Source of the DNA: Acutalibacteraceae bacterium
GTDB lineage: Bacteria; Bacillota; Clostridia; Oscillospirales; Acutalibacteraceae
Direction: 5' to 3'
DNA length: 64,000 nt
NCBI GenBank assembly: GCA_045598065.1
Contig: JAZLLJ010000030.1
Span: 7,832-71,831 of the forward strand
The position numbers and the translations under genes were made by a program. Positions 40,562 to 61,094 of the stretch are shown here, in pieces. Numbering within the stretch: position 1 is the stretch's first letter; each line of letters starts with the position of its first letter. Below the pieces are notes generated by a model. The model was not told the origin of the DNA. It was given only the letters and a program-made list of their open reading frames with translations, and made no database searches.

Positions 40562-41332
40562 TTATTCTTCGGTCTCGTCAATTTCCGGCGTTTCCTCGTC
40601 AGGTTCTTCATCAAGAGCGGCTTGCAGTTTCTCCAATTTAGCTTTCATCTTCTGTTTTTTCCGCTCTTTCTTTTCGGCGGCGGCGCGTTCTTTCATTTCC
40701 GCCTTGTACGCTTTTTTCTCCTCTTTGGTCATTGTTTTCTCGATGACTTTTTTGTCCTCGTCGGTCGCATCCTTCTTGGCTTTCTTAATCTTCACCACAT
40801 CCAGGCGTTCCAACTCGTAAGGAATATTCCGACTCCACTTCCAAAACGCGTGAGCAGCGTTAAGGCGCGCAATCAGCGTACGAGCGGTCACTACCGTCAT
40901 CTCCACGGCCTCCTCTTCCTTGTCGAGAGAAAGAAGAAGTACCGAGGGGTTATAGAGGACCGGGGCGTAAAAGGTGGCAATTTGGTCGGGATCAGCATCC
41001 AGAAGCACACGCCGTCCGAGGTTTTGCAAAGATTTGTCGCCCTCTTCAAGCAATTTGCGCGCCCGTTGTTTTTTTCGGGTATCGCCGGTTTTACGGTTCT
41101 TTTTCTTTTCCTCTTTAGAGAGCACGTCCGACGACGACTCCTCTTCCGAGAAACGATAGCGGCGCTTGATCGCCGTAACACCAAATACACGAGCAAAACC
41201 CGTCCCGTTAAACGTGCCAAGCATCCGCATTTTCACCGATTCCCGAGCGGCCACGATGCAAGTATCGTAGTATGCGATATATCCCAACAGAATGCGGCGT
41301 ATTTCTTTTTTTACATCATTGATGTCGCTCAT
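40562..41332 (-). CDS. hypothetical cytoplasmic protein (256 aa) with a Lys/Glu-rich tail; last gene of the T4SS-like operon
   Basis: Long ORF with no TM segment. Contains basic and acidic low-complexity stretches (KKKNRKTGDTRKKQRARK; C-terminal KERAAAEKKERKKQKMKAKLEKL...EEPDEETPEIDETEE). No family recognised. Confidence 0.6.
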   Translation of the reverse strand: MSDINDVKKEIRRILLGYIAYYDTCIVAARESVKMRMLGTFNGTGFARVFGVTAIKRRYRFSEEESSSDVLSKEEKKKNRKTGDTRKKQRARKLLEEGDKSLQNLGRRVLLDADPDQIATFYAPVLYNPSVLLLSLDKEEEAVEMTVVTARTLIARLNAAHAFWKWSRNIPYELERLDVVKIKKAKKDATDEDKKVIEKTMTKEEKKAYKAEMKERAAAEKKERKKQKMKAKLEKLQAALDEEPDEETPEIDETEE

Positions 41333-41371
41333 AACGGCTCTCTCTTTTCTAAAAGTTCGCGAATATACTGA

Positions 41372-42142
41372 TTATTCCGCTTCGGTCGAAACCGGCGCAA
41401 GAGTTACCCACTCGTGCGAGAGGATTGAAAATCCGCCATCGTCGTTGTGCTGCAATTCCACTTTCAAGGTATCGTTGTTTTTCGCGTCGCGAATATAAAT
41501 CAGACAGTTTTCCGTGCCGGAGCAAGCGAACGAATATCCGACAAGCGACACGCCGTTACCGACTTCTTCGCCCATATCCATTTTCTCATACTTCACTTCA
41601 CCGCGCATCGGGAAAAATTCCCATTCGGCATCTTCTTTTCCGGCAACGGTGACCGCAAAGCTACCGTCTGCCAGTTGTTTTACGGTATAGGAATCACTCT
41701 CAATGTCATCAGCCATTTCTTTGTGGCTCAAAGCCTTGTACGTGACCTTTTGCCCTTGCGCCGTTGCCGTCATGAAAATCTGACTGCGAACATCCGTGCG
41801 AGAGAAAACGTCTCGCAAAGAGAACGTCAAGCAAGACTCGCCGGACATCAACGGCTTAATAAGGAACGTAGTTCCTTCTTCATTGGTGCTTTCAAGAACG
41901 GTGGACAGCGTGTTTCGCTCGTAGTCCGTGACAACCCACTCGTATCCTTCGAGAGAGCCTTTGATAAACAGTTTAATGTTGTCACCGTCTTGCGTCACGG
42001 TACACGGATATTTCGCGCTGCTGTCGTCCGCGTTCAGCGGAACAATCGCAGGCTTTTTGGGCGTGCAAAGCCACAGAATCAAGAGCGCCACCGCCAAAGC
42101 GACCACGATACCCAAAACAATCCATATCACTTTCTTTTTCAC
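41372..42142 (-). CDS. hypothetical N-terminally membrane-anchored extracytoplasmic protein (256 aa)
   Basis: One N-terminal TM helix (IWIVLGIVVALAVALLILWLC) followed by a ~225-aa beta-rich domain. No family recognised. Confidence 0.6.
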   Translation of the reverse strand: MKKKVIWIVLGIVVALAVALLILWLCTPKKPAIVPLNADDSSAKYPCTVTQDGDNIKLFIKGSLEGYEWVVTDYERNTLSTVLESTNEEGTTFLIKPLMSGESCLTFSLRDVFSRTDVRSQIFMTATAQGQKVTYKALSHKEMADDIESDSYTVKQLADGSFAVTVAGKEDAEWEFFPMRGEVKYEKMDMGEEVGNGVSLVGYSFACSGTENCLIYIRDAKNNDTLKVELQHNDDGGFSILSHEWVTLAPVSTEAE

Positions 42143-42172
42143 AACGATGTCCCCCTTGATACGTGGTAAAAC

Positions 42173-45100
42173 TTATTCGGTCACAGAAGTTGTTGTCGGT
42201 TCGGTAACTTCCGTTTCCGAACCGGAGGCGACGGTTTCCGTCGTCTCCGGCGAAGTCTCTTCGGTAGGTGTCGGCTCGGTAGATGCTGTCGTCGGCTCAG
42301 TGGTCGTGAGCATCGTGTTTTCCGCCTCAACGCTGATTTCCACTACCGCCTGAACAGCCGGGTTTTCATCCGACGTGATAATCACACGGTACACTTCGAT
42401 TCCACCGGTCGTGTTCCGCGGCGAATCAAACACAATCTGACTGCCGTTTTTCGTGAAGCAATCCACTTCGGAAACCGCGTCGCCGACCGCTTTGACCGCC
42501 GACACCGTGTACCCGTATCCGGCAAGCGAACCGTTCACTGTCGGTTTAATCGTCACCTGATCGCCGGAGTACACGAGCACCGCGCTCTTCCCTTGGGAAT
42601 CGCTGTTGATGGTGCTGGATTTTTCAACTTTGCTGTTATAGAAACTGGTCTTCGTCGAAATCGAAATGTTGCACAGGTTAATCGTGCGCGGATCACCCTC
42701 ACGGATAATCGGATCGGACAATTTACGCTCAGCCAACTGCTCTTTGCCGTCAACAATCGTCCGCACTTTGAGATTTTCTATACCCCACGCCGCCTGGCTG
42801 TACGGCTCCTTGGAGTGCGGTTCAATAACGACATACCGAATCTCACTGCAATTCTTCATCAGGAAACTAAACGTTGCCGTTTTGCCGGCTTCCAGTTTCC
42901 CGTCGGTCATATAGGCACGCACGTCGTCGATGGCCATCGTACGGGTTTGGCGACCATCCTGGCTGACATAACCAATCGTCATGCGAATGGGATCCGCCGT
43001 AGACGAACTTACAACATCTGTGCTTTCCGCGGTAGTAACGGTAATTTCCACGGGCGCAACGTTGACATCCGTCACACTCATCAGTACCGGAGTAGCTGTA
43101 AGTTTGGCCGCTGCCGCGAAGTTATACCATTTGGTCGGCGTGCTGGTATCACCCTGTATCGGATAGCAACCCACCGTCATTCCGTCCACCGAAGCATTGA
43201 CGCTGCCGGTGCCGGCGACGGTAATGCCGGTAATCTCTTTCAGGTTGGGGATAGCAAAAGGAACCTGAACGAGCAATCCCGGTTTCACAGCCGCATACTT
43301 CATAATTTCCTGTCCATCAGCATCCTTTGTCTTCACATCCGTCAGGAAAACGTACGGCGAACTGTATTCTTTCCCCAGAGGATCGCCTTTCAGCGTATAG
43401 CGAATCGAAATAGCCACATCGGATGCCTCGGCAACCAAGCCGGAGGCAACCGTGTCCTTACCAAACAGCATCGTAACGATCTGCTGTTCAGTGGATATGG
43501 AATGCTTGCTCGAGGGGAATTGCTCACCGGTACTGCTGAATACGTTGATGGGATTTCCAGTACCCGGCGTATGATAATCCATATAGTAATATCCGATAAC
43601 CACACCGGAACGTACGTGCTGAACAATCATATGGTCCACCAAAGCGCTGACCTTATCCAAACTGGGCACGACGAGGTTCGTCTTGTTCAGCGTGGTAAAG
43701 CCGTACGCCGTGATGCCGGTAGCATAGAACACTCTGTCGGTAGTATCGTAGTTAAGACCGTTGACCGTCATTCGCATCGGGCCGTCGTGATCGGAAGATT
43801 CATACGTCAACTCCGCTCTGAGGTCATAGACCTTGGTGGTCTGCCCGTTCGATACTTTCACCGGTGACTGAGCGTTTTCCGCCATATAGACGTACACGTT
43901 CAGTGAATCGTTTCTATTTTCCGGTTTACGGGTGATCGTAGAGGACCAACCCTCTTCCGATTCCTTCGTTACAATAGTGTTGTCCTCAAAAGTGATTACC
44001 TGGTTACCCTCATCTTGGTTCGGAGGAAGAATGACGGCATAAGTATTTTGATCGCTCTTGGTAATCAATTTCATCTGATTATCGGTGTGACGTTGGAACT
44101 CATCCACGCAGTTTAGACGAAGCGTGCCGTTCTCCAACAACTGCCACACTTTCACTTCCTTGATGTTCCACGTTGTACCGTACACGTCGCGTGCAAAGAG
44201 TTCTATTTTCTTAATAGAAGTCACATCCGTCAGACTGATAAAGAAACGGTCGGTATGTCCCTCGCGGAACATATATTCGCGGTTGCTGACAGCGCAGACC
44301 ACTTCTCCGCCGCTCTCGCCGGTCATTTTGCCGAGTGACTTACCTTCACGTGTCTCGTAGCGAGGTTGCTGACCGTTGTACTCGTACATCTTCTGGACAA
44401 CGTCAAAGTTCTTCTTTTGTTCTCCGTCTTTATTGATGTAGGTAACCGTCGCCGTCACTGTTCCTTCAAACTGACTATCGAAAGCCTCACCCGAATACGT
44501 ATCCTCGGCGGCCACATTATACGGATCCGTCGTAATGGAGACCATCAAGTTGGAACTGACGCCCTTTCCGGAGACCGTAAACTCACGCACCAAGTCGCTG
44601 GCGTTACGGCCTTGAAGACCGGACGCCGTGTTTTTCGGCGCATCGTCGCGGTAGTCAATCTTAATCCATCCGACGTTGTCGAAGAACCACGAAGTCGAAG
44701 CCACCGCCGAACTTTTCTTCGTCACGGTGATACTCTTGATATTCAATTTATCGAAAATGTCGGTGCTCTCGTTGGTATCCGAATCGTCCGGCAAAATGCG
44801 AATCGCCGTCAAGTCGCCGAGGTCTTGGTTCGTATAAATGGTAAACGATTCTTTCTCACCGGCACGGAAACCGTCTGCCGTCAACTGTTGGTTTGCGAGA
44901 ACGTACCCACTGTTGCCGCCTTGGAACGTCAACTGGAAGTAGAACAAGTTTTTCGAGCCGGTGTCACCGTCTTTTTCGTTTGCGGAATCGTTGCCTGCCA
45001 CCTGGACTTCCACCTCATAGGTTCCACGAACACGGTTGAAGCCCAGATCCTGCATCGACTCCTTGTAGGTCATAGAATGCTTCAGTTTGTTCCAGTCGAG

Positions 45101-47131
45101 ATCGGTTTCGACGTCGCTTTCTTTGTTTTCGGAACTTTCTTCAAATTCCCCTTTACGGTTGGCGGTCTCTTCATCGCCACCGTTCACATAAATCGGCTCT
45201 TCACCGGGTTTCTCCTTGTCAGAGGCGCCATAAGAGCACATAATCGTCGATTTATCGAAATCACGGGTAATAATCCAGTTGGAAGTGACTTTGCCGGTAC
45301 CGGCGCCCTCTCCCCGTTCATGAAGTTCCAAAACGCGATGGCCGATCCATTCGGGATCGTAGATGATAAGGCTCTTCATCTGCCAGTCGTCGGCGTAGGT
45401 GGAATTCATAGATATATCAAACGACTTGAATTGAGAGACATCGTCCACATCCATAAAGAACATAATCTCTCCACCGGGACGCAGCCCATAATAGCGATGG
45501 TAATCCGGAAATGCCGAACCGTCATCGTAGAATACGTTATCATAGTACGGCCAATATCCATAGAAATCCTCGGGTGCGGTAATCAATGAGTAGGTTTTGG
45601 TGGTTTTGGTAACACCGGAGGTGGATTGATAGGTGAATTTAATTTTCACCTCAGACGTCGTGCCTGCATCTTTGGGCGTATCGGTCTTGATAACGACCAC
45701 GTAGCGACCTTTATAATCGGGCGACAAATCAGCACCGGTGTCATTTTCTTTCACCGAAAGCGTTTTCGGCGAGTCATAAGACAGCGTAATACCGCTGTTT
45801 CCTTCCGCCATCACATACGCAATCGGAATACCGTTGATAGTGTAGAACAAATCCGTCTCACCGTCACCGGTATATTCCAGTTGATCAACATTCTTATACA
45901 GTTTGAAGGACGAAATGGACAGCGTATCTTTTTCGAGTTTATCTTTCGTCCAGTTCTCTAAATCCGGTGAGAGTCTCCCTGAAACGGTGTTTTTAATCCC
46001 CGCGAGTTCAGGCACATCCAAGGTGTAGGACAGTTTGCAGGAAGTCATTTTCTTGAACGCAGGAAGCTTACCGGAGAACACTAACTGCTCTCCCTGCTGC
46101 AACACTTTCCACGGGCACAACGCTTTGTCGTATTCAGCATACCCGTTTTCCGTCGACCACGCAGCCGCGCTGGAAAGCACCGGGAGTTTTGCTGAATACG
46201 AAACACCGCCGACATCTTCATAGGTGATATCCAGCATCAGCACCTCTTTGATAAGTATCATATCCCGGAACGGACACTCGATCATCATTTTTTCAATACC
46301 GGCTTTATAAAAATCCGCAATATCGATTTCAAACAAGTATTCGTCGCTGTCATGGGTGGAATACGCCTCGTTGTTACCGCTGACGAACTGGTAATCGCCG
46401 CCGGAGGGGGCAAAGCAAAACACCTTGTCATTGCCGGACAGGTTTAAATCCACCGTCTTGTTGAAAGAGTAAATCGCTTTGCCGGAGAAATCAATGAACA
46501 GACTGGTAGAATAATATCCAATCATCTGCAGGCCGTAAAGCGTTTCCACTTTATAAATGCTGATACCTTTACAGGTCCACCCCTTCTTGTAGGTAGAAGA
46601 GTAATGTTCGTGAACGTCCACCGAGGTAATGCTGTCCACCGTGTAGTGCGGCGTAAACAGAATCTCATCGGTACTGTTGGGCATCAGCATATTGCTCGAC
46701 ATTAGATTATCAATGTCAACGGTATAGCCGGTATAGTTTTCGACGTTGCTCAGGCGTTTTTCCAAACCGCTGACAGACATCGCTAATTCATAGGTACTTT
46801 CTTTCGGATGGGAATTCGGCGACACAAATTCCACACGGGACACGCCACCCTTGTCCTTATAATGCACTGCAAAATAACTGACGTCCGCGCCGCCGTTGAC
46901 ACCGGTGGAAACGCGAAGGAGATAGGTGTTTTCACAGGCTTTCCCTTCCTGTGAAGCAACACTAACACCGCCGGATGACTTACTTATCCCTTCGTTTGCC
47001 GCAGATGCCGGCAAAGCAGGTGCAATATAAGGCATGACAAAGCAGAGGATCAGCAAAAGCGCCGTAAAACGCCATACTGTCCTCTTTGCTTTTTGCAAAG
47101 AATGCCGTGTTGTCGAGTGTTCCATAGCCAT
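42173..47131 (-). CDS. giant secreted protein (1652 aa) built from repeated beta-sandwich (PLAT/LH2-like) modules with a Thr/Glu/Pro-rich C-terminus
   Basis: Signal-like N-terminus (FTALLLILCFVMPYIAPALPASAANEG). At least 6-8 modules follow the pattern Y.v.v.T....G(T/A)....v...f....G......f.....d...i..i.i......W....i.v. No LPXTG motif and no C-terminal TM. Confidence 0.75.
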   Translation of the reverse strand: MAMEHSTTRHSLQKAKRTVWRFTALLLILCFVMPYIAPALPASAANEGISKSSGGVSVASQEGKACENTYLLRVSTGVNGGADVSYFAVHYKDKGGVSRVEFVSPNSHPKESTYELAMSVSGLEKRLSNVENYTGYTVDIDNLMSSNMLMPNSTDEILFTPHYTVDSITSVDVHEHYSSTYKKGWTCKGISIYKVETLYGLQMIGYYSTSLFIDFSGKAIYSFNKTVDLNLSGNDKVFCFAPSGGDYQFVSGNNEAYSTHDSDEYLFEIDIADFYKAGIEKMMIECPFRDMILIKEVLMLDITYEDVGGVSYSAKLPVLSSAAAWSTENGYAEYDKALCPWKVLQQGEQLVFSGKLPAFKKMTSCKLSYTLDVPELAGIKNTVSGRLSPDLENWTKDKLEKDTLSISSFKLYKNVDQLEYTGDGETDLFYTINGIPIAYVMAEGNSGITLSYDSPKTLSVKENDTGADLSPDYKGRYVVVIKTDTPKDAGTTSEVKIKFTYQSTSGVTKTTKTYSLITAPEDFYGYWPYYDNVFYDDGSAFPDYHRYYGLRPGGEIMFFMDVDDVSQFKSFDISMNSTYADDWQMKSLIIYDPEWIGHRVLELHERGEGAGTGKVTSNWIITRDFDKSTIMCSYGASDKEKPGEEPIYVNGGDEETANRKGEFEESSENKESDVETDLDWNKLKHSMTYKESMQDLGFNRVRGTYEVEVQVAGNDSANEKDGDTGSKNLFYFQLTFQGGNSGYVLANQQLTADGFRAGEKESFTIYTNQDLGDLTAIRILPDDSDTNESTDIFDKLNIKSITVTKKSSAVASTSWFFDNVGWIKIDYRDDAPKNTASGLQGRNASDLVREFTVSGKGVSSNLMVSITTDPYNVAAEDTYSGEAFDSQFEGTVTATVTYINKDGEQKKNFDVVQKMYEYNGQQPRYETREGKSLGKMTGESGGEVVCAVSNREYMFREGHTDRFFISLTDVTSIKKIELFARDVYGTTWNIKEVKVWQLLENGTLRLNCVDEFQRHTDNQMKLITKSDQNTYAVILPPNQDEGNQVITFEDNTIVTKESEEGWSSTITRKPENRNDSLNVYVYMAENAQSPVKVSNGQTTKVYDLRAELTYESSDHDGPMRMTVNGLNYDTTDRVFYATGITAYGFTTLNKTNLVVPSLDKVSALVDHMIVQHVRSGVVIGYYYMDYHTPGTGNPINVFSSTGEQFPSSKHSISTEQQIVTMLFGKDTVASGLVAEASDVAISIRYTLKGDPLGKEYSSPYVFLTDVKTKDADGQEIMKYAAVKPGLLVQVPFAIPNLKEITGITVAGTGSVNASVDGMTVGCYPIQGDTSTPTKWYNFAAAAKLTATPVLMSVTDVNVAPVEITVTTAESTDVVSSSTADPIRMTIGYVSQDGRQTRTMAIDDVRAYMTDGKLEAGKTATFSFLMKNCSEIRYVVIEPHSKEPYSQAAWGIENLKVRTIVDGKEQLAERKLSDPIIREGDPRTINLCNISISTKTSFYNSKVEKSSTINSDSQGKSAVLVYSGDQVTIKPTVNGSLAGYGYTVSAVKAVGDAVSEVDCFTKNGSQIVFDSPRNTTGGIEVYRVIITSDENPAVQAVVEISVEAENTMLTTTEPTTASTEPTPTEETSPETTETVASGSETEVTEPTTTSVTE

Positions 47132-47226
47132 TCCTCCAAGTTTCCGCGTTTTGCAAGGTTTCTCTAACCAAAAAAGGGAAAAACGCGGTGAAAGGTTACA
47201 TTATTAAAGAGAATATTTTCCGATAC

Positions 47227-47532
47227 TTATCCGTTATCAATATGCAAAAGCCCTGCAAATCCGGTCATTTCAAATACTTCCATCACCATACGGTTAACAC
47301 GGCGAAGGACCAGTTCTCCCTCTCGCTTACGCATTTTGATGTGGAGATTTTTAAGAATGCGCAGACCGGCGGAAGAAACGTACTCCATTCCTTCCATATT
47401 CAAAATCACACGGGAAAACCGTTCGGAAACGTTTTCAAAAATCGTTTCCATTTCCTTTGACGTTACCGAATCCAGTCGGCCCATCAGAATGAGTTCTCCT
47501 TCATCCCCTCGGTTAATCAGTTTTACTTTCAT
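47227..47532 (-). CDS. STAS-domain protein (anti-sigma-factor antagonist, SpoIIAA/RsbV-like)
   Basis: About 101 aa from MKVKLINRGDEGELILMGRLD. Conserved phospho-serine context MEYVSSAGLRIL. The ORF extends to 47571, but the internal Met gives the normal STAS length. Confidence 0.8.
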   Translation of the reverse strand: MKVKLINRGDEGELILMGRLDSVTSKEMETIFENVSERFSRVILNMEGMEYVSSAGLRILKNLHIKMRKREGELVLRRVNRMVMEVFEMTGFAGLLHIDNG

Positions 47533-47571
47533 AGCAGGAAAAGAGAACCTCCTTTCTGTCCTTTGTTTCAC

Positions 47572-50500
47572 TTAACCACGTTTCGAATTATAATGCGCCA
47601 GTTCTTCAATCGTAATGGCAATTACGGTCTCACCGTAATCTTTCATACGATCAATCGGCGACACATCGCCAAGGCGCTTGGCTTCCATAACCAAAAGCGA
47701 CATAATATCGAAGCCGGATTTCTTCTTTTCCTCGTCGCCTTCGGCAGCGGAATCCGGTTTTTCCGCCGGTTTTTCTTCCGGTTTTTCCGTCGGTTTTTCT
47801 TCCGGTTTTTCCGTCGGTTTTTCTTCCGGTTTTTCCGCCGGTTTTTCTCCCGGCTTTTCTTCCGGTTTTTCTGCCGCCGGCGTCTCTGCTTTTTCGGCAA
47901 CAGGCGGTATGTCGTTGGCCTCGTCTCTATCCACAGTCACTGTGCCGGAAGCGCCCGGAATCATACCCGGCACCTCATACTGCGCCACCGTAGGCTCCGT
48001 TGCCAATCCGCCGGAAGCATTCGTTCCACGCTCCACTGCCAAAGCGGCATCCACGGCGCGGCGAATCTCCTCCTGCATAGCATCGTGGCTGAATTTAGAC
48101 AAAAGTTCCGCCAACAACCGCTCTGTTTCGCCGGAAGAAGCCGGTGCCTGCACCACAACAGGTTGCATCAAAGGTGTGGCCGACGCCGCGATAAGCGCCG
48201 GATCCACCGTCGGAACGACCGGAGCGGAAACCGCGTTGCTCTCGGGCAGGTCGAACTCCTCTTCCAGCTCGATTTCTTCTGTAAAGGCAACCGCCTTTTC
48301 AGAAGAACGTTTAGTTTCTTCGGCGGCAAGTTCTTCTTCCTCGGTAATCTCTTCAAATACCACGTGCGCACGAGCTTCTTTTTCAACGATTTCCTCTTCC
48401 ATAACCTTCTTCACGTGGACATTCTGTTCGTGAATTTCACGGGAATCGCCCATAAAGTCATCCCATGCGGCTTCACCGTCGTCATCACGGAAATAACGGG
48501 AAATATACTCCCGTTCTTTGAACATCGCCACAACGTCCTCCGGCACTGCCACCTTAAAGGTGGAACGGCTTTGGGGCGACATAATAGCAAATGCCTGACC
48601 GCGAGGAGCAGAAATAATTTCTTCCTGCTCACTTTCGTTGATTCCGCCCGCTTTTTCATACAGCGTGCACAAATCTTCCATATCGTTCGGCGCCAAAGAG
48701 AACACAAAACTGTATTGGCAGGCATTAATGATAGCCGTGGATTTGCGAGCAATTTCTTCCGAGCCCACAAAGTCCTTGATGTTCTGGGTAATGACAATCT
48801 GCATACCGTTGTATTTACGAATACGCTTCGCCAACTGATACATAAAGTCAAGCGCGACCGGGAATTTGGTATCAATAAACACGTGTGCCTCATCAATAAC
48901 TACCACAATTTTACGCTTGACACCGTAACGCATATTGTAGTCGCGGTTTTTGATGATCTCGTTGTCGATGTATTTCAGCACCAAAAGCATCTGTGCATTG
49001 GCAATGGTGCCGTTACGGTTGGCAAGCAAGCTTTGGAAGTTGAACACCGTGAAGTTCTCGTCGGTCGTAACCGTAGACGGACCGTTCCAAATGTTGGCGT
49101 TGCGCCCACCGGCAGAGAATTTCGCAATGTAGTTCATCAGCGTACGAAGCATAGTGCGAATATACTCGTTGTCGGTGGTCTGGAACTCCGACAGCACCGC
49201 ATCGTACAAGTCATCAAACACCGGGTAATCTTCCGGGCGCAGACGGCTCAAATCCGTTTCGGCGGTGATACCCATATTGGTATACATCCGGTCGATAATG
49301 GAGTTTAAGTATTCCATCGCATCGCGGTCGCAATCCGGCAGAATCTGGCGGAAGAACTCCTCTAAGAACTGCAGGTGTGTCGCATAACTGCCCGAAACCG
49401 TCTCCGTTCCCTCTTCGTCATCATCCAAAGCGGTGATGATATGGAACGGGTTGAGTCGCCCATATTGCGCGTTGCCCACGTTGATAAACTTGCCGTGGAG
49501 GTTGTGCGCCAATTCGGTATATTCATTTTCCGGATCAAGGATAAAGATTTTGCTGTCATCTGCAGCCAAGTTAGCAAGCAGACTCTTGGTGGCATAGGAT
49601 TTACCGGAACCGGATTTACCCACAATCACCATATTGGAGTTAACGCGCTCGGAATCGCGGCGGAAGAAGTCAATAAACACCGGCACGCCGTCCGATTGAC
49701 CGAGTTTAATACCCTTTTCATCCGAAATGTGGGCGAAAATCCACGGATAGGAAGCCGCAACAGAGTTGCTGGGAATTCCGCGGCCGTCTTTGTGCATAGG
49801 ATCCCACGCGCTGATTTGACTGCCCACAAACGCATGGACTTGGTCAAAGTCCATATTGTTAAGGCGCAGGTTGGATTCACTGTAAAGTCGACGGACCGTG
49901 CGTTTCATATTGGTGATGTTGGCAAGCGACGACTCTTTCAATTTGGGATCGTCGTTAAGCACGCACGTTTGGTTGATATCGTAGCAAGTCACGTAGATGT
50001 TGACCGAAAGAAGGGTTTCGTTATCCCCTTGCAGTGTGGCCAGTAAATCGCTTAACGTCTCAATGTGTTCTTGCAGTTCAATACGTTTGGAATCGATACC
50101 GGTAGCACGATATTGGGCGCGCAGTTCTTGCAGCGAGAAGTCGATGGCACGCACCGATTTATTGCGGTCCATCGGCGTGCATTTCACCACCACTTTGGTG
50201 GCCGGCATAGACATTACACCGGCAAGCCACGCATCGCCGACAACCGACGGATAGTTGACCACTCGCATATTGTGGGTAACAATTTGGTTAACGAGAACCG
50301 TCCGGGCTTTCATCTGCACGTACTGTGGCATCGCCCATTTGGCATAATCCTCGGGTTTCACGTTGTCAATCTCTTTTTCGTCAAAATCCAACGCGTTGGA
50401 ATATTTAAGGAACACTGCCAATTCTTTGTTTCCGAGGCGGTGAACTTTGAGTTCGGCGTTACGCAAAAGGTCCAGCGCAGAATGCACCGCATTGTTCAGT

Positions 50501-51545: not shown

Positions 51546-51556
51546 GATGCTAAAAT

Positions 51557-54318: not shown

Positions 54319-55275
54319 TCAACGCACACGCAATTTCTTTCTGGAAACAACAAGATACGCAATGAGTCCTCCGAGCGTCGCCAACAACAGCAGGGCAAAC
54401 GCGACAGCGGACAGGTTAAAATAAATCAAAATGCGGAAATTATAGGTAGTTTCATTGCCTGCGGCATCCGTGAGAATCAGGTGGTAGACACCGCTTTGTG
54501 TCAATTTGTCTTTCTTTTGAATTTCCCGATTGCCGAGCAGGATTTTAATGGAAACATCCGGCTCCAAATCGGAAATATCCACCGGGCCTTTGGCCACGTT
54601 GTTTTTCACCGCTTCCAATTTCAATGTCGGCGGCGTGTGATCCACTTCAACGCTAAGGGTGTACGGATGGTCAATCACATCACAGCGATAACTGATTGTG
54701 TATTTTCCCTCCGCAGACATATCCGCCACGTTAAAACTAAACGGAGCCTCCGCTCCATCGAGACGGGCATCTGTAATAGTAAACCCCTCAGGAACCATAA
54801 AAGTTTCAAGAAGTCCGGTTTTTTTTGCTAAAATTGTGAAGCGGAGGATTTGTTCGGCGCGAGTACCAACACCCGTAGCCAACAGAATGTATTCTCCGGT
54901 TTCTTCGATGTGGTCATAATCCACATCCTTCACCGTTTCTCCGTCACGGGTAAGTGTCGGAGTGACGCCGGCGGGAATTTTTATTTTCACCGGTTCCGTC
55001 GTGTACATTCCATCCGCCACAGAAGCATAAAAACTACCTTCCGGCGTAACGGTTTCTTTGGTATAGCAAAACATTCCCTCGTTTTTATCGTACCAGGTCG
55101 TTTCGTTGACACAAACAAGCGTGTAGCCGGTTTCCTCGTCCAGAGGTTGGTCGGTATCGGGGTTGATTTGTTCGATGGTGGTGGAAACCGCCGCTGCATT
55201 GAATCCAAGCGACATACACAGCACAACCGTCAAAACTATCGCAATAAGCTTTTTCACGTTCTCCACCCCTCTCAC
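54319..55275 (-). CDS. hypothetical surface protein (318 aa): signal peptide, beta-rich ectodomain, C-terminal TM anchor
   Basis: N-terminal LIAIVLTVVLCMSLGFNAAAV, C-terminal LSAVAFALLLLATLGGLIAYLVVSRKKLRVR. Its start overlaps the stop of the upstream VirD4-like gene by 4 nt. Confidence 0.65.
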   Translation of the reverse strand: MRGVENVKKLIAIVLTVVLCMSLGFNAAAVSTTIEQINPDTDQPLDEETGYTLVCVNETTWYDKNEGMFCYTKETVTPEGSFYASVADGMYTTEPVKIKIPAGVTPTLTRDGETVKDVDYDHIEETGEYILLATGVGTRAEQILRFTILAKKTGLLETFMVPEGFTITDARLDGAEAPFSFNVADMSAEGKYTISYRCDVIDHPYTLSVEVDHTPPTLKLEAVKNNVAKGPVDISDLEPDVSIKILLGNREIQKKDKLTQSGVYHLILTDAAGNETTYNFRILIYFNLSAVAFALLLLATLGGLIAYLVVSRKKLRVR

Positions 55276-57269
55276 TGCTTCAGCACGGTAGCGTTTCGTG
55301 CCTTGATATCATAAAACGCTTCATCCGCTCGGAAAATGTGAGAACGAATCTCGTCCAAATCCATCCGACCGAACTGATAGAAGTCGCATTTGTATGACGG
55401 GGTGTATTTGGTCATCAGCGGATAGTTACCGAACGTCACGATAATGGCGTTACCGGTCGAGGTTTTATTGTTAAGTTTTTGCAAATCCGACGGATAAATA
55501 AGCGGACGAGTCTGCAACTGGTTACTGACGTTCATATCGCCGTCTTTCGAACCGAGACCGGCGGAAGTCGAAGTGGTACGCACCGTTTTGTTACCGCACA
55601 ACTCCGAGAACTCTTTACAAGTGCCGATATCGTTCGAACCGATAAACATTTTCAGCGCACAGTTGGATTTCACAACGTCCGCCACGCCCTCGCCGTAAAT
55701 ATTGTTGAGCTGGGCGTAACTCTGCACCACCATATTGAACCAAATCTTACGGCTACGACCGACGGTAATCATCTTGTCGAATTTCTCGATACGCGGCATA
55801 TTACCGAACTCATCGAGGATGAAATACACGTTGCGCGGCAAAGACAAATCCTCGCGCGCGGACGCGACTTTAATTAAACCCTTATAGAGACTCAGGATAA
55901 ACAACGACGCCAATCCGTGTCGAGTATCCTTTTCGTCCGGGATTTTAAGGAACAACGCCGTGGGACGTTCGGCGAATTGTTCGGCGCGGATATCCGTGGC
56001 CGAAGTCAAGCCGCAAATGCCGCGGTCGTTGAAAATATTCAATTTATCGAAGGTAATAGACATATAGCTGGAAAGCGTTTGATCCGCCGCCGCCAACACC
56101 TGGCGAGACAGCGACACCGCTTGGGACAGTTTGCTTCTGCCCTCAAAATAGCGTTTTAAATGGATATAGTTTTTCTCACTGTTAGTGAGAATCTTGTTAA
56201 GATTAAAGAAATTGAATTTCTCCTTGGTCATGCCGAGGCGTTTATCTTGGCTGTCTTCGAGCATGGCAATGCAGGTCGCCAAAATGATAGAACGGGCACC
56301 TTTTTCCCACAAGGGATCTTTTTCGTTGGTAATGGGGCAAATACCCGAAATGAGGTCGTTTAAGTCCTCGTACATCTCATCGTAAATGCGCTGTTTCGCC
56401 ACAGAAACGTCGTCCTGACAGTGGCGAAGGTCCGTATACGCTTTGCCGTCCCACTCGCACCACACCTCACCGGCAGGCTCGTCATCCATCCGCTTAAGGG
56501 ACGGATAATCATCAAGGCTGTCGCGGTGAGCAAGGATATCCTTGCCCATCTCGGCGTACTGCTGATACATATCCCAAACGGATTCCAACGGATTCCAACG
56601 GGAGGAAGAATAGGTGTCGCGCAAATCGAGCACCATCACGTCATAACCGCGGGATTTCAGGAATTTGGAGTGCATATCGAACAACTCGCCCTTCGGGTCG
56701 GTCATCACCATGCTGGAACCGCAGTTGGTCGCGCCGATTAACTGAATCATGGGGTTAATAAACGTGGTGGTTTTACCGGAACCGGTAGAACCGATAACAA
56801 GCGCATGCGCACCGGACATCATATTGATGTGCATTTGCCCTTTTTTGTCCACAATCGCACGCAACGGCGCGCCGTCTTTCTTTGCATTCGGCAGCATTTC
56901 ATAGGTCAACGGGGTAAACAACTTATCCCGTTCTTTTTCGGTCATATAGCGGCTGTTCTCCAACACGGATTCCACGTCGCCGTTTTTACCTTTTCCCATA
57001 ATGTTGTGACCGCGGCCGAAGTTGCTGCCCATAAAGACCAAAAGCAAAACCAGCGCCACAATCACAAAGCCGGTCAGCCACGTACCGATGGACACCAAAT
57101 ATTTCCAGTAGAGCACGAACGATTCGCCATGAATGATACCTCGTGCGTTGGCAATAATATTACGCAACAGAAAGCCCAAAAGGCCTGCTCCGAACAATGC
57201 AATCGCGCCATACGCAATCAACTTGTCCAGAGGCAGGCTTTTAAACCAATCTTTGAGTTTGTTCATCAT
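55272..57269 (-). CDS. VirD4/TraG-type type IV coupling protein
   Basis: 665 aa. Two N-terminal TM helices. Walker A IGSTGSGKTT is encoded at 56766-56795. The FILDEFGNMPRIEKF...GRSRKIWFNMVVQSYAQLNNIYG block is typical of T4CPs. Confidence 0.85.
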   Translation of the reverse strand: MMNKLKDWFKSLPLDKLIAYGAIALFGAGLLGFLLRNIIANARGIIHGESFVLYWKYLVSIGTWLTGFVIVALVLLLVFMGSNFGRGHNIMGKGKNGDVESVLENSRYMTEKERDKLFTPLTYEMLPNAKKDGAPLRAIVDKKGQMHINMMSGAHALVIGSTGSGKTTTFINPMIQLIGATNCGSSMVMTDPKGELFDMHSKFLKSRGYDVMVLDLRDTYSSSRWNPLESVWDMYQQYAEMGKDILAHRDSLDDYPSLKRMDDEPAGEVWCEWDGKAYTDLRHCQDDVSVAKQRIYDEMYEDLNDLISGICPITNEKDPLWEKGARSIILATCIAMLEDSQDKRLGMTKEKFNFFNLNKILTNSEKNYIHLKRYFEGRSKLSQAVSLSRQVLAAADQTLSSYMSITFDKLNIFNDRGICGLTSATDIRAEQFAERPTALFLKIPDEKDTRHGLASLFILSLYKGLIKVASAREDLSLPRNVYFILDEFGNMPRIEKFDKMITVGRSRKIWFNMVVQSYAQLNNIYGEGVADVVKSNCALKMFIGSNDIGTCKEFSELCGNKTVRTTSTSAGLGSKDGDMNVSNQLQTRPLIYPSDLQKLNNKTSTGNAIIVTFGNYPLMTKYTPSYKCDFYQFGRMDLDEIRSHIFRADEAFYDIKARNATVLKQ

Positions 57270-57293
57270 AAAGATGCCCCGCTTTCTGTCAAA

Positions 57294-57325
57294 CGCTTAG
57301 GCGAGAGTTTCCCCTCGCCTAAGCG
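57294..57325 (-). promoter_or_regulatory. intra-operon stem-loop between the 672-aa gene and the coupling-protein gene
   Basis: CGCTTAGGCGAG-n8-CTCGCCTAAGCG (12-bp perfect stem), followed on the minus strand by only TTT. Confidence 0.5.
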
Positions 57326-57362
57326 GAATTTTCAAATGTATTTTATCCGGTCGATTCTCCTG

Positions 57363-59381
57363 TCAGCGATAAAAAACGTTTTTTTGACCGGACACGGTTT
57401 TCGCGGCGTTATCCATTTTGAGGGTTCCGTTTAACACCGTGGTTCCTTCGTTGTTGAAATAACTACCGGAACTACCGAAAAAGTCTGCCTGGGCTGCCAT
57501 TTTTTCAAGTCCGTCAATGGTCGCATTGTTGGACTTATCATTAAGAATTTTCGGTCCGGGAGTGAATTTTTTTGCATAAAAACCGGCAAAAATACCGGCG
57601 CCACCCCGGTTTTGCACCTCTCCGTCTTCAATCGAAATACCGTTCGGCAACACCATAACGCCCATATTCAGCACCGTTGCCCCTTGGTACACGTACAGAG
57701 GTTGGCCGGACTCACTTCCCATATACAAGGCGGCTTCATTCATTACAATCAATTCGCCGCCGCAATCGTCATACGACGTGGGATCGTCCGTAGTTTTATT
57801 TTCCGCCATATAGTCGCGGATGACTTGGTCACGGTTGGCAATGAAATCATCATAGTCCTCGCGCAACTTTGCCGTATCTTCCTTCAGTTTCTGTTCCTCT
57901 TTTTCCAAGTCTGCAAGAGCCGCCTCAATGCTGGCTCTATCCGTGGGAGAAGCATACTTCAGAGAGGCATTATACGCCAGACGTCTTGATTGGATGGTGG
58001 CATACGGAAGAGAAAACTGCGTTCGCCACGATTCTTCATATTCCGCCAGTTTTTCTTCGTATTTTTCCGTGGCTTTTTTCACGTTGTCGCGGAAGAAGGT
58101 ACTGGAAAATTCCACAGTACTGCCATAGTTATTGATACACCCTTCCGAACCGTTGTCGGTGCATATCGCGGAGTCATTGTTGATGACAATCGTACCGCAG
58201 TTTTCAATCGTACCGCGGTTGTACAAAATACCGGACACCGTCAAGGTGGCACCGGGTTCAATCAACAACCGCGTGCCTTCGTCGATAACGGTATTGCTTT
58301 TGGCGTTGTACGTCGAACCTTTGGTAATGGTGTAGTCTTCTTTAATATCCATCATTTCACGGGAAGTACCGTAGTACAGCGCAAAGTTACTGGTACAAAG
58401 AGGCGGAATTCCTATCAACGGACAGACAACAGCAACACCGGCACCGTCATAACAAAGACCGTATGGAGAAATTTCACCTTCGATACAGAAGGGTAACTGC
58501 ACTTTATCGGGATCGACAAGTTTCGTACCAAATCCGAAAAATCCGGGTTCATTTTTGTTGTCAGCAGTAAGCACAGCACACTCAACATTCGTTAAATACG
58601 TGCCGTTGCCCCAATCCAAATCTAAAGAACCAACAACAATAGGAGACGACATCACACTCAGACTTTTGCCGTCGCCCTTGAAGAGCACGATAGGCGTTCC
58701 TTCATCGGTGTATTTTTTTACATCCATACTCAATTTCGAGTTGTTCTCGGCGGTATAAAACACGTCCGAATCAATCGAAACACCGGAAAGATCGGAGATT
58801 TTCTTTCCTTTCAGCGGTCTAGCAAACGAAAAGTCCCCTGAGCCGGATATCCAAAAGCGCTGCGCCGCCGGGCTTGTCGCCCAGCTTTCTTTGCTGTTTC
58901 CGGCCACGTTATCGCGGAAAGCATCCAACAAGTTGCTGTTGTTGGCATTTGCTACAAAATAGTCGTCAAAACTGTTGTAACCGCTGATAGCACTTTCTTG
59001 CGTTTCCTGCAGATATTTCTTATATGCGGTCAGCATATCAGCAGGCATATTCGCCACGTTACGGCTGGAGATACCGTCGAGATAGAACGAACGGAAAGTG
59101 GATTCTCTTTCGGTTCCCGACAGGGCATACGTCGTTCCGTCGGCAGCCTCCCAGCAGATGTACACCGGCACGTTTTTGCCCACAAAGGCCTTTAAATCGT
59201 TTTTGCCGGTCACACGTTTCCATTCCCATACGGTGGTTCTGCCTCCATTCGCAGAATCGGTTGCTCCCGCCGATGCCGGAACGGCATAGACGGCAAGCAT
59301 GGATGCCGCCGTAAGGCAGGCAAGCGAGAAGGCGAGCATATGTCGCATATTCGATTGAATTCTCTTGAAAACGGCTTTCAT
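57363..59381 (-). CDS. hypothetical secreted protein (672 aa) with a central coiled-coil segment and Gly/Asn-rich beta-helix-like stretches
   Basis: Signal peptide MLAFSLACLTAASMLAVYAVPASA. Segment NRGTIENCGTIVINNDSAICTDNGSEGCINNYGSTVEF. Coiled-coil-like KKATEKYEEKLAEYEE...LADLEKEEQKLKEDTAKLREDYDDF. No family recognised. Confidence 0.65.
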   Translation of the reverse strand: MKAVFKRIQSNMRHMLAFSLACLTAASMLAVYAVPASAGATDSANGGRTTVWEWKRVTGKNDLKAFVGKNVPVYICWEAADGTTYALSGTERESTFRSFYLDGISSRNVANMPADMLTAYKKYLQETQESAISGYNSFDDYFVANANNSNLLDAFRDNVAGNSKESWATSPAAQRFWISGSGDFSFARPLKGKKISDLSGVSIDSDVFYTAENNSKLSMDVKKYTDEGTPIVLFKGDGKSLSVMSSPIVVGSLDLDWGNGTYLTNVECAVLTADNKNEPGFFGFGTKLVDPDKVQLPFCIEGEISPYGLCYDGAGVAVVCPLIGIPPLCTSNFALYYGTSREMMDIKEDYTITKGSTYNAKSNTVIDEGTRLLIEPGATLTVSGILYNRGTIENCGTIVINNDSAICTDNGSEGCINNYGSTVEFSSTFFRDNVKKATEKYEEKLAEYEESWRTQFSLPYATIQSRRLAYNASLKYASPTDRASIEAALADLEKEEQKLKEDTAKLREDYDDFIANRDQVIRDYMAENKTTDDPTSYDDCGGELIVMNEAALYMGSESGQPLYVYQGATVLNMGVMVLPNGISIEDGEVQNRGGAGIFAGFYAKKFTPGPKILNDKSNNATIDGLEKMAAQADFFGSSGSYFNNEGTTVLNGTLKMDNAAKTVSGQKNVFYR

Positions 59382-59447: not shown

Positions 59448-59852
59448 TTACAGTTTGCTGGCGTCAATGACGTCGCCGCCGCTGACGTTGTCGTTCACCC
59501 ACTCGGCGAGGAGAGGCGTGACCAGGTTCAGGACAAGGATCAAGACGAAGATCAGCACGAAGCCGATAACCGCGTTTTGCAGGTGAGATTTCGCTTTCTC
59601 ACGATCCTGCGGCTCTTCCGCTTTGGCGAATTTCACACCGAGGATGATGCAGTACAGAGCGCCCACGGCAACGACGAGGACGAGGGCCGCCGTCATCAAC
59701 GTGCGGAGAAGGTTAACGATCGGGTCGGTAACTGCTTCCAGGCCCTCACCTTCCGCCAGAACGGCGAAGCCCATGAGCATCGCGGTGCCCATAATGGCAG
59801 CGAGACGCGCGGTCAGTTGTTTTGCGGTGAATTTTTTGCTGAGTTTTTTCAT
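59448..59852 (-). CDS. VirB2/TrbC-like pilin-type small membrane protein (134 aa)
   Basis: Signal-like N-terminus, then two hydrophobic helices separated by a short charged loop (KFAKAEEPQDREKAKSH), the canonical T4SS pilin topology. RBS GGAGGAAC. Confidence 0.55.
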   Translation of the reverse strand: MKKLSKKFTAKQLTARLAAIMGTAMLMGFAVLAEGEGLEAVTDPIVNLLRTLMTAALVLVVAVGALYCIILGVKFAKAEEPQDREKAKSHLQNAVIGFVLIFVLILVLNLVTPLLAEWVNDNVSGGDVIDASKL

Positions 59853-59920: not shown

Positions 59921-60367
59921 TTACATCATCGGTGCCTGTTTTTCCGGCACGTTCAGTTCCGGCTCATTTACCGTCACCGACACAAGATTGACGTCTTTCA
60001 GTTCGTTTTCGGCGATGCGTGTAAGCTCGTCGGTGAATTTGCCGTTTTCCAAATCGTGGCCGATTTCCTCAGGCGAGCGGTCAACCAACGCCTCAAACGC
60101 CGGCAACTCTTTCATCTGAGTGGCAAGCGCTTCCACGTCCGTTCCGGCAGGTAGACGGTTATTCTGTGCCAAACGGCCGACGGCGGCAGCAGCGGTCAAA
60201 TCGCGCATGTCGCTTTTCGACGCGGTATTTCCGAGCGATTTCAGCTCTTTTTCCGCCTCACGGCCCTTTTCAACGGCCTTGACGGTCGTCACCATGCTCT
60301 CGACCAGCTCTTTCGGAGCGCCGGCCGGTTCGCCGATGGCTTTCGATACTTTCTCTTTCGGTGTCAT
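59921..60367 (-). CDS. hypothetical soluble helical protein (148 aa), tightly coupled to the ECF sigma gene
   Basis: Starts 4 nt after the sigma stop codon. No TM segment and no HxxxCxxC zinc anti-sigma motif. Confidence 0.6.
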   Translation of the reverse strand: MTPKEKVSKAIGEPAGAPKELVESMVTTVKAVEKGREAEKELKSLGNTASKSDMRDLTAAAAVGRLAQNNRLPAGTDVEALATQMKELPAFEALVDRSPEEIGHDLENGKFTDELTRIAENELKDVNLVSVTVNEPELNVPEKQAPMM

Positions 60368-60371
60368 TCCA

Positions 60372-60833
60372 TCATCCCTCTAACTGCGTTTTGAGCGCTT
60401 CTCTTGCCCGCATTAGCGTGACCTTTATCGTGTTTTCCGGTTTGCCGAGAATCTCGGCAATTTCCTTAATCTTCAGGTCTTGTAGGTAGAACAGCGTAAT
60501 GACTTCCCGTTGGGCATCGGGAAGTTTTTGGATAGCGCGCCGCAAATCGAGAATTTCATCGTTTTCGGTGCGTTCCCCTTTGTCGTCGGTCAACCCTTCA
60601 TCCAACTCCACGTCGTACGTCCGGCCGGACAGCATATCTTTCGCGCAGTTGATGGTCACGCGAATGAGCCAGGCCTTGCGATGTTCCTCGCTTTCAAAGG
60701 AGCGTTCCTTCTTGAAATACGCGAGGAACGTCTCGGAGTAAACATCTTCCGCGTCAGCGGGGTTGCGAACATAGCGCATGGCAATTTTATACACCATGTC
60801 GGAATACGTGCGGACGATTTCTTCGCCGTTCAT
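60372..60833 (-). CDS. ECF-type (group IV) sigma-70 family sigma factor
   Basis: Region 2 (AEDVYSETFLAYFKK...KAWLIRVTINCAKD) and region 4 HTH (REVITLFYLQDLKIKEIAEILGKPENTIKVTLMRAREAL). The ORF opens at 60902; the start was chosen at MNGEEIV. Confidence 0.85.
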   Translation of the reverse strand: MNGEEIVRTYSDMVYKIAMRYVRNPADAEDVYSETFLAYFKKERSFESEEHRKAWLIRVTINCAKDMLSGRTYDVELDEGLTDDKGERTENDEILDLRRAIQKLPDAQREVITLFYLQDLKIKEIAEILGKPENTIKVTLMRAREALKTQLEG

Positions 60834-61094
60834 AAACAACACCCGCTCCTTTCGGGAAAGGTTACAACCCATCCAAATTTTTTGCGCAGCTTTTGGGACC
60901 ACAGTATCATATATACGCGCACATGATAGCCCAATTTCCCTTATTTTCGCATATTATATAAGAAAAGTCAACCCCTCTTTACAAGAAATAGTATAAATTT
61001 CTTCCATAATTCACCGTTTTTCGACCGACACCGGGGTTTTCGGAATATTTTTTCTCCTCTTTGCATAGCGTAAGACCAAAAAGGAGGCTTTTTT

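Follow-up and report, generated by a model that had tools for sequence, protein, structure and literature searches.

A chromosomally fixed type IV secretion gene block without a relaxase, headed by an ECF sigma factor gene, in an Acutalibacteraceae bacterium

Gene content of the block

The stretch of DNA analysed here, 64,000 nucleotides long and referred to as the window (G000:C30:7832-71831), stems from the metagenome-assembled genome (MAG) of an Acutalibacteraceae bacterium (G000; 1.6 Mb, 98 contigs, 99% complete by marker genes) and carries a block of 12 genes, g1 to g12, that together resemble a type IV secretion system (T4SS). The 12 open reading frames (ORFs) all lie on the minus strand, run co-directionally from 60902 to 40562 with intergenic gaps of -4 to 95 nt, and end at a bidirectional intrinsic terminator (40522-40557), whose two 16-nt arms (40522-40537 and 40542-40557) are perfectly complementary, enclose a loop of 4 nt and are bordered by runs of A and of T. 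An annotation made earlier from the letters alone (the original prediction) had placed 12 tightly spaced genes and a terminator at 40521-40557 here, and had taken the block for a domesticated or repurposed Gram-positive T4SS and not an ordinary integrative and conjugative element (ICE); all its ORFs exist where it put them, and the terminator has the perfect stem just described. The core-gene flanks that it named were matched by profile search: an ABC transporter of the potABCD type and an aldose 1-epimerase (Aldose_epim) on one side, and YabP, YabQ, DivIC and an S1-domain protein on the other. The analysis below describes what the sequence indicates to be a chromosomally resident, selected and regulated T4SS of the monoderm MPF-FATA lineage that is without a relaxase and is not self-transmissible. 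No description of the block was found in full-text literature searches.

Protein families were assigned by profile searches against Pfam and NCBIfam, the latter with NCBIfam cut-offs, and four of the 12 proteins were recognised as parts of a secretion apparatus. The VirB2-like pilin g3 (59448-59852) matches T4SS_pilin (PF18895, 45 bits) and Mbov_0395 (NF045849, 60.7 bits, cut-off 40). The VirD4-type coupling protein g5 (55272-57269), which has two N-terminal transmembrane (TM) segments, matches T4SS-DNA_transf (PF02534, 174 bits) and the CD1115 VirD4 family (NF045973, 291 bits, cut-off 250) and additionally TraG-D_C and TrwB_AAD_bind. Polytopic protein g7 (51557-54280), with about seven hydrophobic TM-like segments and a variable, repeat-rich C-terminal part, contains the MMCAP2_0566 VirB6-like domain (NF045848, 101 bits, cut-off 90) and scores just below the cut-off of NF045889 (Mbov_0396; 67.5 vs 70 bits). 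Protein g8 (47572-51465) joins a VirB3-like N-terminus, comprising one TM segment, to a VirB4 ATPase and a 320-aa C-terminal extension; it matches P-loop_TraG (78 bits), AAA_10 and DUF87 and reaches 549 bits against the Mbov_0397 VirB4 family (NF045975), below the cut-off of 590. Its Walker A (GKSGSGKS, residues 616-623) and Walker B (DEAH, residues 858-861) motifs are invariant, and it is the sole VirB4 of its genome. As can be seen, the VirB2-like, VirD4-type, VirB6-like and VirB3-VirB4 assignments of the original prediction hold, down to the bases of the two Walker motifs, and the VirB4 and type IV coupling protein (T4CP) calls, whose possible failure under profile search it had envisaged, both passed. 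The VirB4, VirD4 and VirB6-like components of a monoderm MPF-FATA-type T4SS are all present. Mbov_0395 is matched above its cut-off, and Mbov_0396 and Mbov_0397 below theirs; the block is probably sister to the Mycoplasma ICE T4SS family and not a member of it.

Searching the 12 proteins with the same two profile collections returned no family match for a VirB1-type hydrolase; the structural model of g10 (residues 41-1200) consists of beta-sandwich only, and g4, g6, g11 and the C-terminus of g10 lie outside the models. Likewise, no family match to a VirB8/TcpC-like (NTF2-fold) bitopic protein was found among the 12 proteins, with g6 and g11 outside the structure models. The topology of g11 fits a VirB8/TcpC-like protein, the single lead being a weak chagasin-like beta-sandwich. 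Two of the apparatus genes contain in-frame tandem repeats: a 12-nt period encoding EKP-type peptide in the VirB4 C-terminal extension (47731-47898), and 21- and 27-nt Gly/Asn-rich units in the C-terminal part of the VirB6-like protein (51636-51970). Both tails likely differ in repeat length between strains. GC-rich hairpins without T-runs stand between g4 and g5 (57270-57362) and between g7 and g8 (51466-51556), and a near-consensus sigma-70-like match at 57292-57265 overlaps the VirD4 start codon; these are possible sites of processing or attenuation within the operon.

The block opens with g1 (60372-60902), an extracytoplasmic function (ECF) sigma factor with Sigma70_r2, r4_2 and ECF domains; its ORF runs from a GTG at 60902, and the probable start is the ATG at 60833 (153 aa), as originally predicted, which is preceded by the ribosome-binding site AAGGAG. 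Gene g9 (47227-47571) encodes a STAS protein of the anti-sigma-antagonist type (PF01740, TIGR00377). The STAS family given to it earlier stands (52 bits), and its start is probably M14 at 47532.

Six block proteins (g2, g4, g6, g10, g11 and g12) are without a known family. The largest, g10 (42173-47131, 1652 aa), is N-terminally anchored and, as had been supposed, has a secreted-type N-terminus; in addition, residues 700-830 form a PLAT domain (PF01477). An AlphaFold2 (AF2) model of residues 41-1200, with a predicted local distance difference test (pLDDT) score of 80, is a chain of tandem beta-sandwich domains, of which the PLAT domain superimposes on those of lipoxygenases and lipases (Foldseek probability 1.0, root-mean-square deviation 2.9 A); likeness to multi-C2 ferlins and to the C-domains of streptococcal AgI/II is weaker (AgI/II probability 0.5-0.75). 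As to further PLAT domains, a hidden Markov model of the PLAT region and hhalign comparison of nine model-derived domains gave weak, partial relations, and we claim one such domain. The g10 family comprises 301 representatives, every one of them long, and an ESM Atlas search with g10 gave no usable match.

Three further proteins are exported or anchored. Protein g4 (57363-59381, 672 aa) has a signal peptide, a core of GxLxNxGTI-type beta-helix-like repeats (residues ~330-445), a hypervariable remainder and a weak match to tapirins. Protein g6 (54319-55275, 318 aa) shows, in an alignment of 13 orthologues, a signal peptide, beta-rich domains with a DHTPPTL motif and a C-terminal TM anchor. Protein g11 (41372-42142, 256 aa) is bitopic or lipoprotein-like, with a TM segment and repeated beta domains, evolves fast, and is homologous to lipoprotein-like proteins of 378-380 aa at the same position in other genera; its ESM Atlas leads are chagasin-like and all sub-threshold. 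The cytoplasmic proteins without family are g2 and g12 only. Protein g2 (59921-60367, 148 aa) is helical, lacks an anti-sigma domain, a zinc motif and a TM segment, and is kept in the cluster; it follows the pilin gene in some genera, among them the Agathobaculum-type loci. Its earlier designation as a sigma partner is unproven, because g2 is not always beside the sigma gene in other genera. Protein g12 (40562-41332, 256 aa) has a conserved alpha/beta core of 170 aa and a Lys/Glu-rich tail, as judged from alignment and a model (pLDDT 80); no specific fold was matched by Foldseek (E above 0.08, none at 0.001 or better), and a wide VIA search returned generic alpha/beta domains with a best Z of 7.0, within the tool's stated noise. 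Searches of the PDB with profiles of g6, g10 and g2 yielded no match below E = 0.06.

Mobility functions and conservation in congeners

The 12 proteins match no relaxase, recombinase, replication, partition or hydrolase family in Pfam or NCBIfam. Genome-wide, the models for relaxases of the families MOBP, MOBT, MOBQ, MOBV and MOBH (PF03432, PF02486, PF03389, PF01076, TIGR03760) and for serine recombinases (PF00239) gave no match, and the only two tyrosine recombinases found are both on contigs other than C30. As to an oriT, intergenic hairpins are all that was seen. Direct repeats of att type spanning the flanks, which the original prediction had suggested looking for near 40.5 and 61.0 kb, do not occur beyond chance. 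A relaxase or recombinase hidden among the unassigned ORFs would have changed the picture; alignments of g2 and g12 show no conserved His, Tyr or Asp catalytic pattern, and the g12 model matches no HUH or recombinase fold. The suggested structure prediction and Foldseek comparison have thus, for g10 (41-1200) and g12, yielded the PLAT domain in the former and no such fold in the latter. With these profile searches the earlier statement that no relaxase, integrase or recombinase, or hydrolase is recognisable in the block stands. Because genes for DNA transfer or integration are lacking, the apparatus looks used for something other than ordinary conjugation.

We then compared the yabP-upstream locus across relatives, as had been proposed. 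The same 12 genes occupy the same site in congeners G002, G007 and G011, and in G008 the block is split over contigs; it is absent from more distant congeners. In G006 (98% complete, flanking proteins ~96% identical) the yabP upstream region is joined directly to the last 430 nt of g12. The junction thus lies inside g12, and because these 3' 430 nt are kept G006 lost the block by imprecise deletion and not by excision. Between G000 and G011, dN/dS is 0.035-0.35 for all 12 genes, with the sigma factor g1 at 0.035, and dS in the block (0.5-2.4) resembles dS in the flanks (0.86-1.24). The block is intact, and all of its genes are under purifying selection. Identity between the two genomes is 86-94% for the sigma factor, VirD4 and VirB4 and ~83% for the STAS protein, whereas the surface proteins diverge far faster (g4 33%, g11 44%, g10 57%, g6 59%); among congeners generally, identity is 33-35% for g4 and 42-44% for g11.

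These data bear on the possibility that the block is the inert, decaying relic of an old ICE from which relaxase and integrase have been lost. The absence of mobility genes, the deletion in one congener and the absence from more distant ones would agree with such a history. It is nevertheless made extremely unlikely by 12 reading frames that are intact in four species, by dN/dS of 0.035-0.35 at dS of about 1-2, by a gene order that two orders of Clostridia share for the same 10-12 genes, by more than 3400 homologues of the ATPase core, the best 120 of which are full length and at least 72% identical, and by a dedicated regulator and promoter. The presence and absence pattern, which the original prediction had named as a possible sign of ICE decay, is not ICE-like, comprising imprecise deletion, no att repeats, a fixed site and purifying selection. 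No relaxase, no integrase or att repeats and no precise presence/absence polymorphism were found, and the block is, with high probability, neither an ordinary nor a decaying ICE.

Distribution and relation to known systems

Outside the genus the same gene order (pilin, g4, VirD4, g6, VirB6, VirB4, STAS, giant protein, g11-like protein, g12, often with the sigma factor and g2) is found in Cacconaster, Vescimonas, Dysosmobacter, Ruminococcus sp. CAG:382, Agathobaculum and several Lachnospiraceae. There the neighbours of the block differ (trmD/rimM/rpsP/ffh, response regulators, histidine kinases or a hybrid kinase), and no mobility genes are in view around it. The VirB4 core has its more than 3400 homologues mostly in metagenome assemblies; the best 120 are 1131-1606 residues long, and identity between orders is 58-66%. 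In a census of one genome per genus this VirB4 type occurs only in Bacillota (at or above 100 bits), its upper likeness bands covering about 30 of 2445 Clostridia genera. Of the 15 carriers in the top band, 9 have a STAS gene within 5 kb, as opposed to fewer than 3 of 78 carriers in the 20-39% band. A divergent relative from another family of the order (L019, G029:C25:1-20000) has three to four large VirB6-like paralogues and an 888-aa VirB4 without the C-terminal tail, followed by STAS and then a CvpA-like protein; since the pair is present there too, VirB4-STAS is, as far as gene order tells, older than the rest of the block.

The best family matches of the pilin, VirB6-like and VirB4 proteins are to the T4SS of Mollicutes ICEs and plasmids (Mycoplasma ICE CDS5 and CDS15-17; Spiroplasma citri plasmids). 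Like the block, these are minimal sets with no recognisable VirB1 or VirB8, and they likewise include surface proteins that are essential to the process. Unlike them, the block has a VirB4 that is only ~28% identical, stands in a host that has sporulation genes and probably a cell wall, lacks a DDE transposase, a single-stranded DNA-binding protein (SSB) and ICE ends, and is chromosomally fixed; it adds the ECF sigma factor, the STAS protein, the giant PLAT protein and the 320-aa VirB4 tail. Among 72,556 plasmids the best relatives, at ~28-29% identity, are Spiroplasma citri plasmids, a mycoplasma (Mesomycoplasma) ICE and Bacillus thuringiensis plasmids, and identity nowhere rises above 60%.

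Such relatives speak for the main rival explanation, namely that the block serves relaxase-independent or trans-acting conjugation, moving chromosomal DNA, or elements bringing their own relaxase, with the surface proteins as mating adhesins. Modelled on the role of the Mollicutes ICE apparatus in mycoplasma chromosomal transfer, this reading draws on the family matches (Mbov_0395, Mbov_0396/MMCAP2_0566 and Mbov_0397), on the nearest plasmid relatives, on the TrwB_AAD_bind and TraG-D_C domains of VirD4, and on Mollicutes ICEs being equally without VirB1 and VirB8 (PMC12857230); the patchy spread in Clostridia, with 58-66% VirB4 identity between orders, moreover suggests past transfer. A relaxase-independent machine would also agree with a census in which none of 195 carriers of this VirB4 clade has a MOBP relaxase within 10 kb, a count without internal positive control because no band had positive neighbours. 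Although a serious contender, it is in our view the less probable reading: the genome holds no relaxase of the five families for the machine to serve, no SSB, DDE transposase, partition or replication gene was seen in the block, four species have the block at one and the same site and its dS resembles that of the flanks, and an ECF regulon of dispersed proteins without assigned function is foreign to known conjugation systems. Were it true that the block moves chromosomal DNA without a relaxase, genes would pass through the gut microbiota by a route that has gone unrecognised.

The Gram-positive conjugation T4SSs (Tn916/CTn CD1110/CD1115, ICEBs1, pCF10, pCW3) share VirB4, VirB6 and the CD1115-type VirD4 with the block, and their PrgB is comparable to its large surface adhesins; the block differs in its VirB4 (153 bits vs a cut-off of 325 for CD1110) and in having no relaxase, integrase, VirB1-type hydrolase or VirB8/TcpC-like match. 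The 'Hodor' megaplasmids of the gut belong to another context, with Rep_3 and a MOBH-like HD nuclease (TIGR03760, absent from the present genome). The nearest precedent for a chromosomal, relaxase-less monoderm T4SS is found in Patescibacteria, where chromosomal and mostly relaxase-less systems derived from monoderm MPF-FATA, with VirB2-like pilins and in small host genomes, have been proposed to be co-opted for a non-conjugative, contact-dependent role (PMC12102498; PMC12857230). VirB1- and VirB8-like genes are reported in the Patescibacterial loci, whereas none was recognised in the block, and ECF, STAS or PLAT partners are not reported there; nor is the VirB4 type shared, that of the block being found, at or above 100 bits, only in Bacillota.

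Regulation and candidate regulon

A housekeeping-type promoter (60943-60971, minus strand; TTGACT-17 nt-GAAAAT with a TG extension), identified by promoter scan, lies upstream of the sigma gene, and a TTGACT/TTGACA-N17-TATAAT-like arrangement precedes sigma orthologues in seven other loci across genera. Between this promoter and the gene stands an ECF-type bipartite motif, TGTAACCTTT-N14-GGTGTT (60834-60866, minus strand), which ends just before the sigma ATG and is conserved in register (TGTAAC-N17-GGTGTT) in congeners and Cacconaster. Gene g1 encodes Sigma-70 regions 2 and 4 only and has this conserved motif upstream, as is the case in ECF systems, and is probably autoregulated through TGTAACCTTT-N14-GGTGTT.

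Searching the genome for GWAACYTT-N14-16-GTRTT gave 14 sites vs ~1.1 in shuffles, and scanning with a weight matrix brought in two more. T4SS-positive congeners have 4-14 such sites each, G006, from which the block is deleted, has 3, and the other genomes have 0-1. The motif precedes the sigma gene and about 10 dispersed genes, whose products mostly evolve fast, are 250-1333 aa long (longer where a contig end cuts) and have neither signal peptides nor Pfam families, an ADP-ribosylglycohydrolase domain being the exception; some share shuffled modules. Homologues of one such product occur only in T4SS-positive congeners, at 28-48% identity, and in G011 an island contains three motif sites that drive homologous proteins. 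G006 has two relic sites, and the frames behind them are interrupted after 22 and 13 codons. One candidate member of the regulon is in the window (12821-14034, minus strand), where an ECF-motif promoter (14002-14034) precedes a gene for a signal-less 383-aa protein (12821-13972) that has no Pfam family and no homologue in 40 relatives.

Two PF03747 ADP-ribosylglycohydrolase-domain proteins are encoded at G000:C72:2212-3870 and G000:C87:3034-4317, with both contigs ending inside these genes; one gene is directly behind the best-scoring motif site and the other is divergent from a motif-driven gene of at least 966 aa. At many motif sites (G000:C16:1051, C96:7586, C2:12659, C85:923) GTGAACCC or GAACCCC occurs ~5-8 nt downstream of the -10 element GTRTTA, at or just past the expected transcript start. 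Many motif-driven proteins in G000, G002, G008 and G011 begin with Pro/Gly-rich N-termini (MGFGPTGY, MGFKPLS, MAFGPNGY, MPPKVM, MGPKEY, MKPKEY, MPPFEG, MAPPIF), which could be a shared N-terminal recognition feature or simply reflect relatedness. Inside the operon a TGTAACCTTTC element, kept in congeners, stands 69 nt upstream of g10 (47164-47200, minus strand) and comprises the -35 half of the ECF motif only. Similar elements are present in Vescimonas and one Lachnospiraceae locus; the function is uncertain because the -10 differs. An apparent 'ATGTAAAC' promoter before the pilin gene was rejected, because in several genera it is no more than the end of the preceding gene with its stop codon.

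A second layer of control is suggested by the STAS protein g9, whose YxSSAGLR phospho-serine motif is invariant in the alignment and which has a counterpart after VirB4 in every related locus, the divergent G029 type included. A SpoIIE-type PP2C phosphatase gene (9122-10603, minus strand; PF07228, 152 bits) lies in the window, 30 kb from the operon, and in eight loci from other taxa homologues with 49-58% identity adjoin the T4SS block, sometimes together with a HATPase_c_2 kinase and a second STAS gene. The kinase module of the present genome is on contig C37. There, G000:C37:5400-9000 encodes a HAMP-PP2C-HATPase_c_2 fusion of 605 aa, an HD_4 protein and a STAS-APH fusion, and this cluster corresponds to a PP2C/kinase/STAS/HD_4 module directly after the T4SS block in locus L046. 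A STAS protein with conserved serine, a PP2C and a HATPase_c_2 kinase, the sequence hallmarks of an RsbU/RsbV/RsbW-type system, are accordingly all found, and the PP2C at 9122-10603 is probably the partner-switching input for g9. A predicted complex of VirB4 (residues 185-985) and STAS scored 0.04 vs a mark of 0.32 and weighs neither way. The promoter motif and its dispersed candidate regulon, the PP2C/STAS module linked to the cluster and the PLAT-bearing beta-sandwich array are new here.

Proposed function

Our preferred reading, to which we assign a probability of roughly 45%, is that the block encodes a regulated, contact-dependent translocator with the co-regulated, signal-less proteins as its cargo. 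Basal expression of the sigma factor would come from the housekeeping promoter; once released, g1 would fire its own TGTAAC...GTGTT promoter and thereby transcribe the operon that follows and about ten dispersed genes, with STAS g9, the PP2C phosphatase and an RsbW-like kinase acting as a phosphorylation-controlled switch. VirB3/VirB4 (g8), VirB6 (g7) and VirD4 (g5) would make up the membrane machine, together with the pilin g3, and the fast-evolving surface proteins g4, g6 and g11 and the giant PLAT-bearing g10 would contact the target cell or membrane. The part of VirD4 would be to recruit substrates from the cytoplasm that have no signal peptide, for which the co-regulated dispersed proteins, possibly with g12, are the candidates. 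Coupling proteins are normally dedicated to recruiting cytoplasmic substrates.

This last point separates a translocator from a machine for surface display, adhesion or pilus formation only, which would present g4, g6, g10 and g11 so that the cell attaches to substrate, host mucus or other cells, and would have no cytoplasmic cargo. The block has a pilin gene, and the folds of its four surface proteins are like those of adhesins, with beta-helix repeats, Ig-like domains and a PLAT/beta-sandwich array resembling AgI/II C-domains; these proteins are 33-59% identical among congeners vs 86-94% for the sigma factor and the two ATPases, and a dockerin-rich organism fits life on surfaces. Yet all four have Sec-type N-termini, so that a T4SS would not be needed to export them; a coupling protein that normally recruits cytoplasmic substrates is 91% conserved among congeners; and the co-regulated dispersed genes mostly encode signal-less proteins. 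We accordingly regard a purely adhesive role as quite improbable.

Several observations weigh against a translocator. The nearest characterised relatives are DNA-transfer machines, and VirD4 keeps a DNA-binding-type domain; no cell-wall hydrolase or VirB8-like part was recognised among the 12 proteins, although the host has sporulation genes and is probably walled. Two of the motif genes encode secreted proteins (on C15, with a dockerin, and on C64), and the C-termini of the regulon proteins are acidic, not basic. Within the operon the full motif is found only at the sigma promoter, the elements before g10 and g4 being the -35 half only, and the exact motif is not enriched in five other block-carrying genera, so that evidence for the regulon is confined to this subclade. 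A second ECF-like sigma factor (G000:C33) has the same subclade distribution, is kept in G006 and confounds the sigma assignment; g1 is favoured because the motif stands before it, which is the one basis for this choice. So scattered an occurrence (about 30 of 2445 Clostridia genera in the upper likeness bands) means that the block has moved horizontally or has been lost many times. Finally, MAGs can drop mobile elements, and the interrupted frames in G006 may be assembly errors.

A more specific form of the translocator reading is suggested by comparison with effector and killing T4SSs (Xanthomonas X-T4SS, Legionella Dot/Icm, Streptococcus suis 89K), which, as the block, are chromosomal, have a coupling protein and no role in self-transfer, and with which it would share a dispersed, fast-evolving, co-regulated set of candidate cargo proteins. 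Unlike these systems, the block has no recognised shared signal domain (e.g., XVIPCD), basic C-terminal tail or toxin-immunity pairs, and the S. suis 89K island, unlike the block, keeps VirB1 and VirB8. We tentatively propose, as a possibility with the balance of probability tilted against it, an effector-translocating T4SS of gut Clostridia, in which the ECF sigma factor switches on the machine and a species-specific, rapidly turning-over cargo, ADP-ribosylglycohydrolase-domain proteins included, that would be injected into neighbouring bacterial or host cells after the giant PLAT protein has docked on the target membrane. If true, commensal Firmicutes would thereby gain their first defined system of this kind. 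Nearly all known Gram-positive T4SSs move only DNA and their non-conjugative functions are almost unknown; dedicated Gram-positive effector translocators are a long-standing open question, for which only the S. suis 89K island and Patescibacteria are listed (PMC12857230). The block is a concrete and abundant candidate in this respect, and the question becomes testable because the block brings a regulator, a promoter motif and a list of candidate cargo.

A chromosomal T4SS without a relaxase could also serve DNA release or uptake, like the Neisseria gonococcal genetic island (GGI) or Helicobacter ComB, and the VirD4 and VirB4 proteins do give weak profile matches to the archaeal DNA-import proteins CedB and CedD. 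These matches are far under their cut-offs (18.7 vs 700 bits and 31.3 vs 600 bits), the GGI uses a relaxase and ComB is without VirD4, and the giant PLAT protein and the regulon are explained by neither system, which makes such a role very unlikely. Whichever function applies, ICE finders keyed on VirB4 and T4CP will miscall the block as a decayed ICE.

Neighbouring features

Two annotated ORFs proved spurious, one of 152 aa at 10626-11084, which overlaps a tRNA-Leu gene, and one of 126 aa at 60968-61348, which overlaps yabP. Across the genome about 50 ORFs terminate with a type I dockerin module (e.g., G000:C15:4605-5384 and G000:C96:1478-4993), a wealth that, in 1.6 Mb, suggests a cellulosome- or amylosome-like surface lifestyle. 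Within the window, tRNA-Leu genes at 10880-10963 and 16231-16315 (minus strand) bracket a stretch of low GC content (0.45-0.48; 10880-16315) that looks like an acquired islet and encodes an SPFH/Band-7 and zinc-ribbon protein (11094-12371), a 128-aa ORF, the ECF-motif gene at 12821-13972 and a 695-aa protein of no family (14030-16117).

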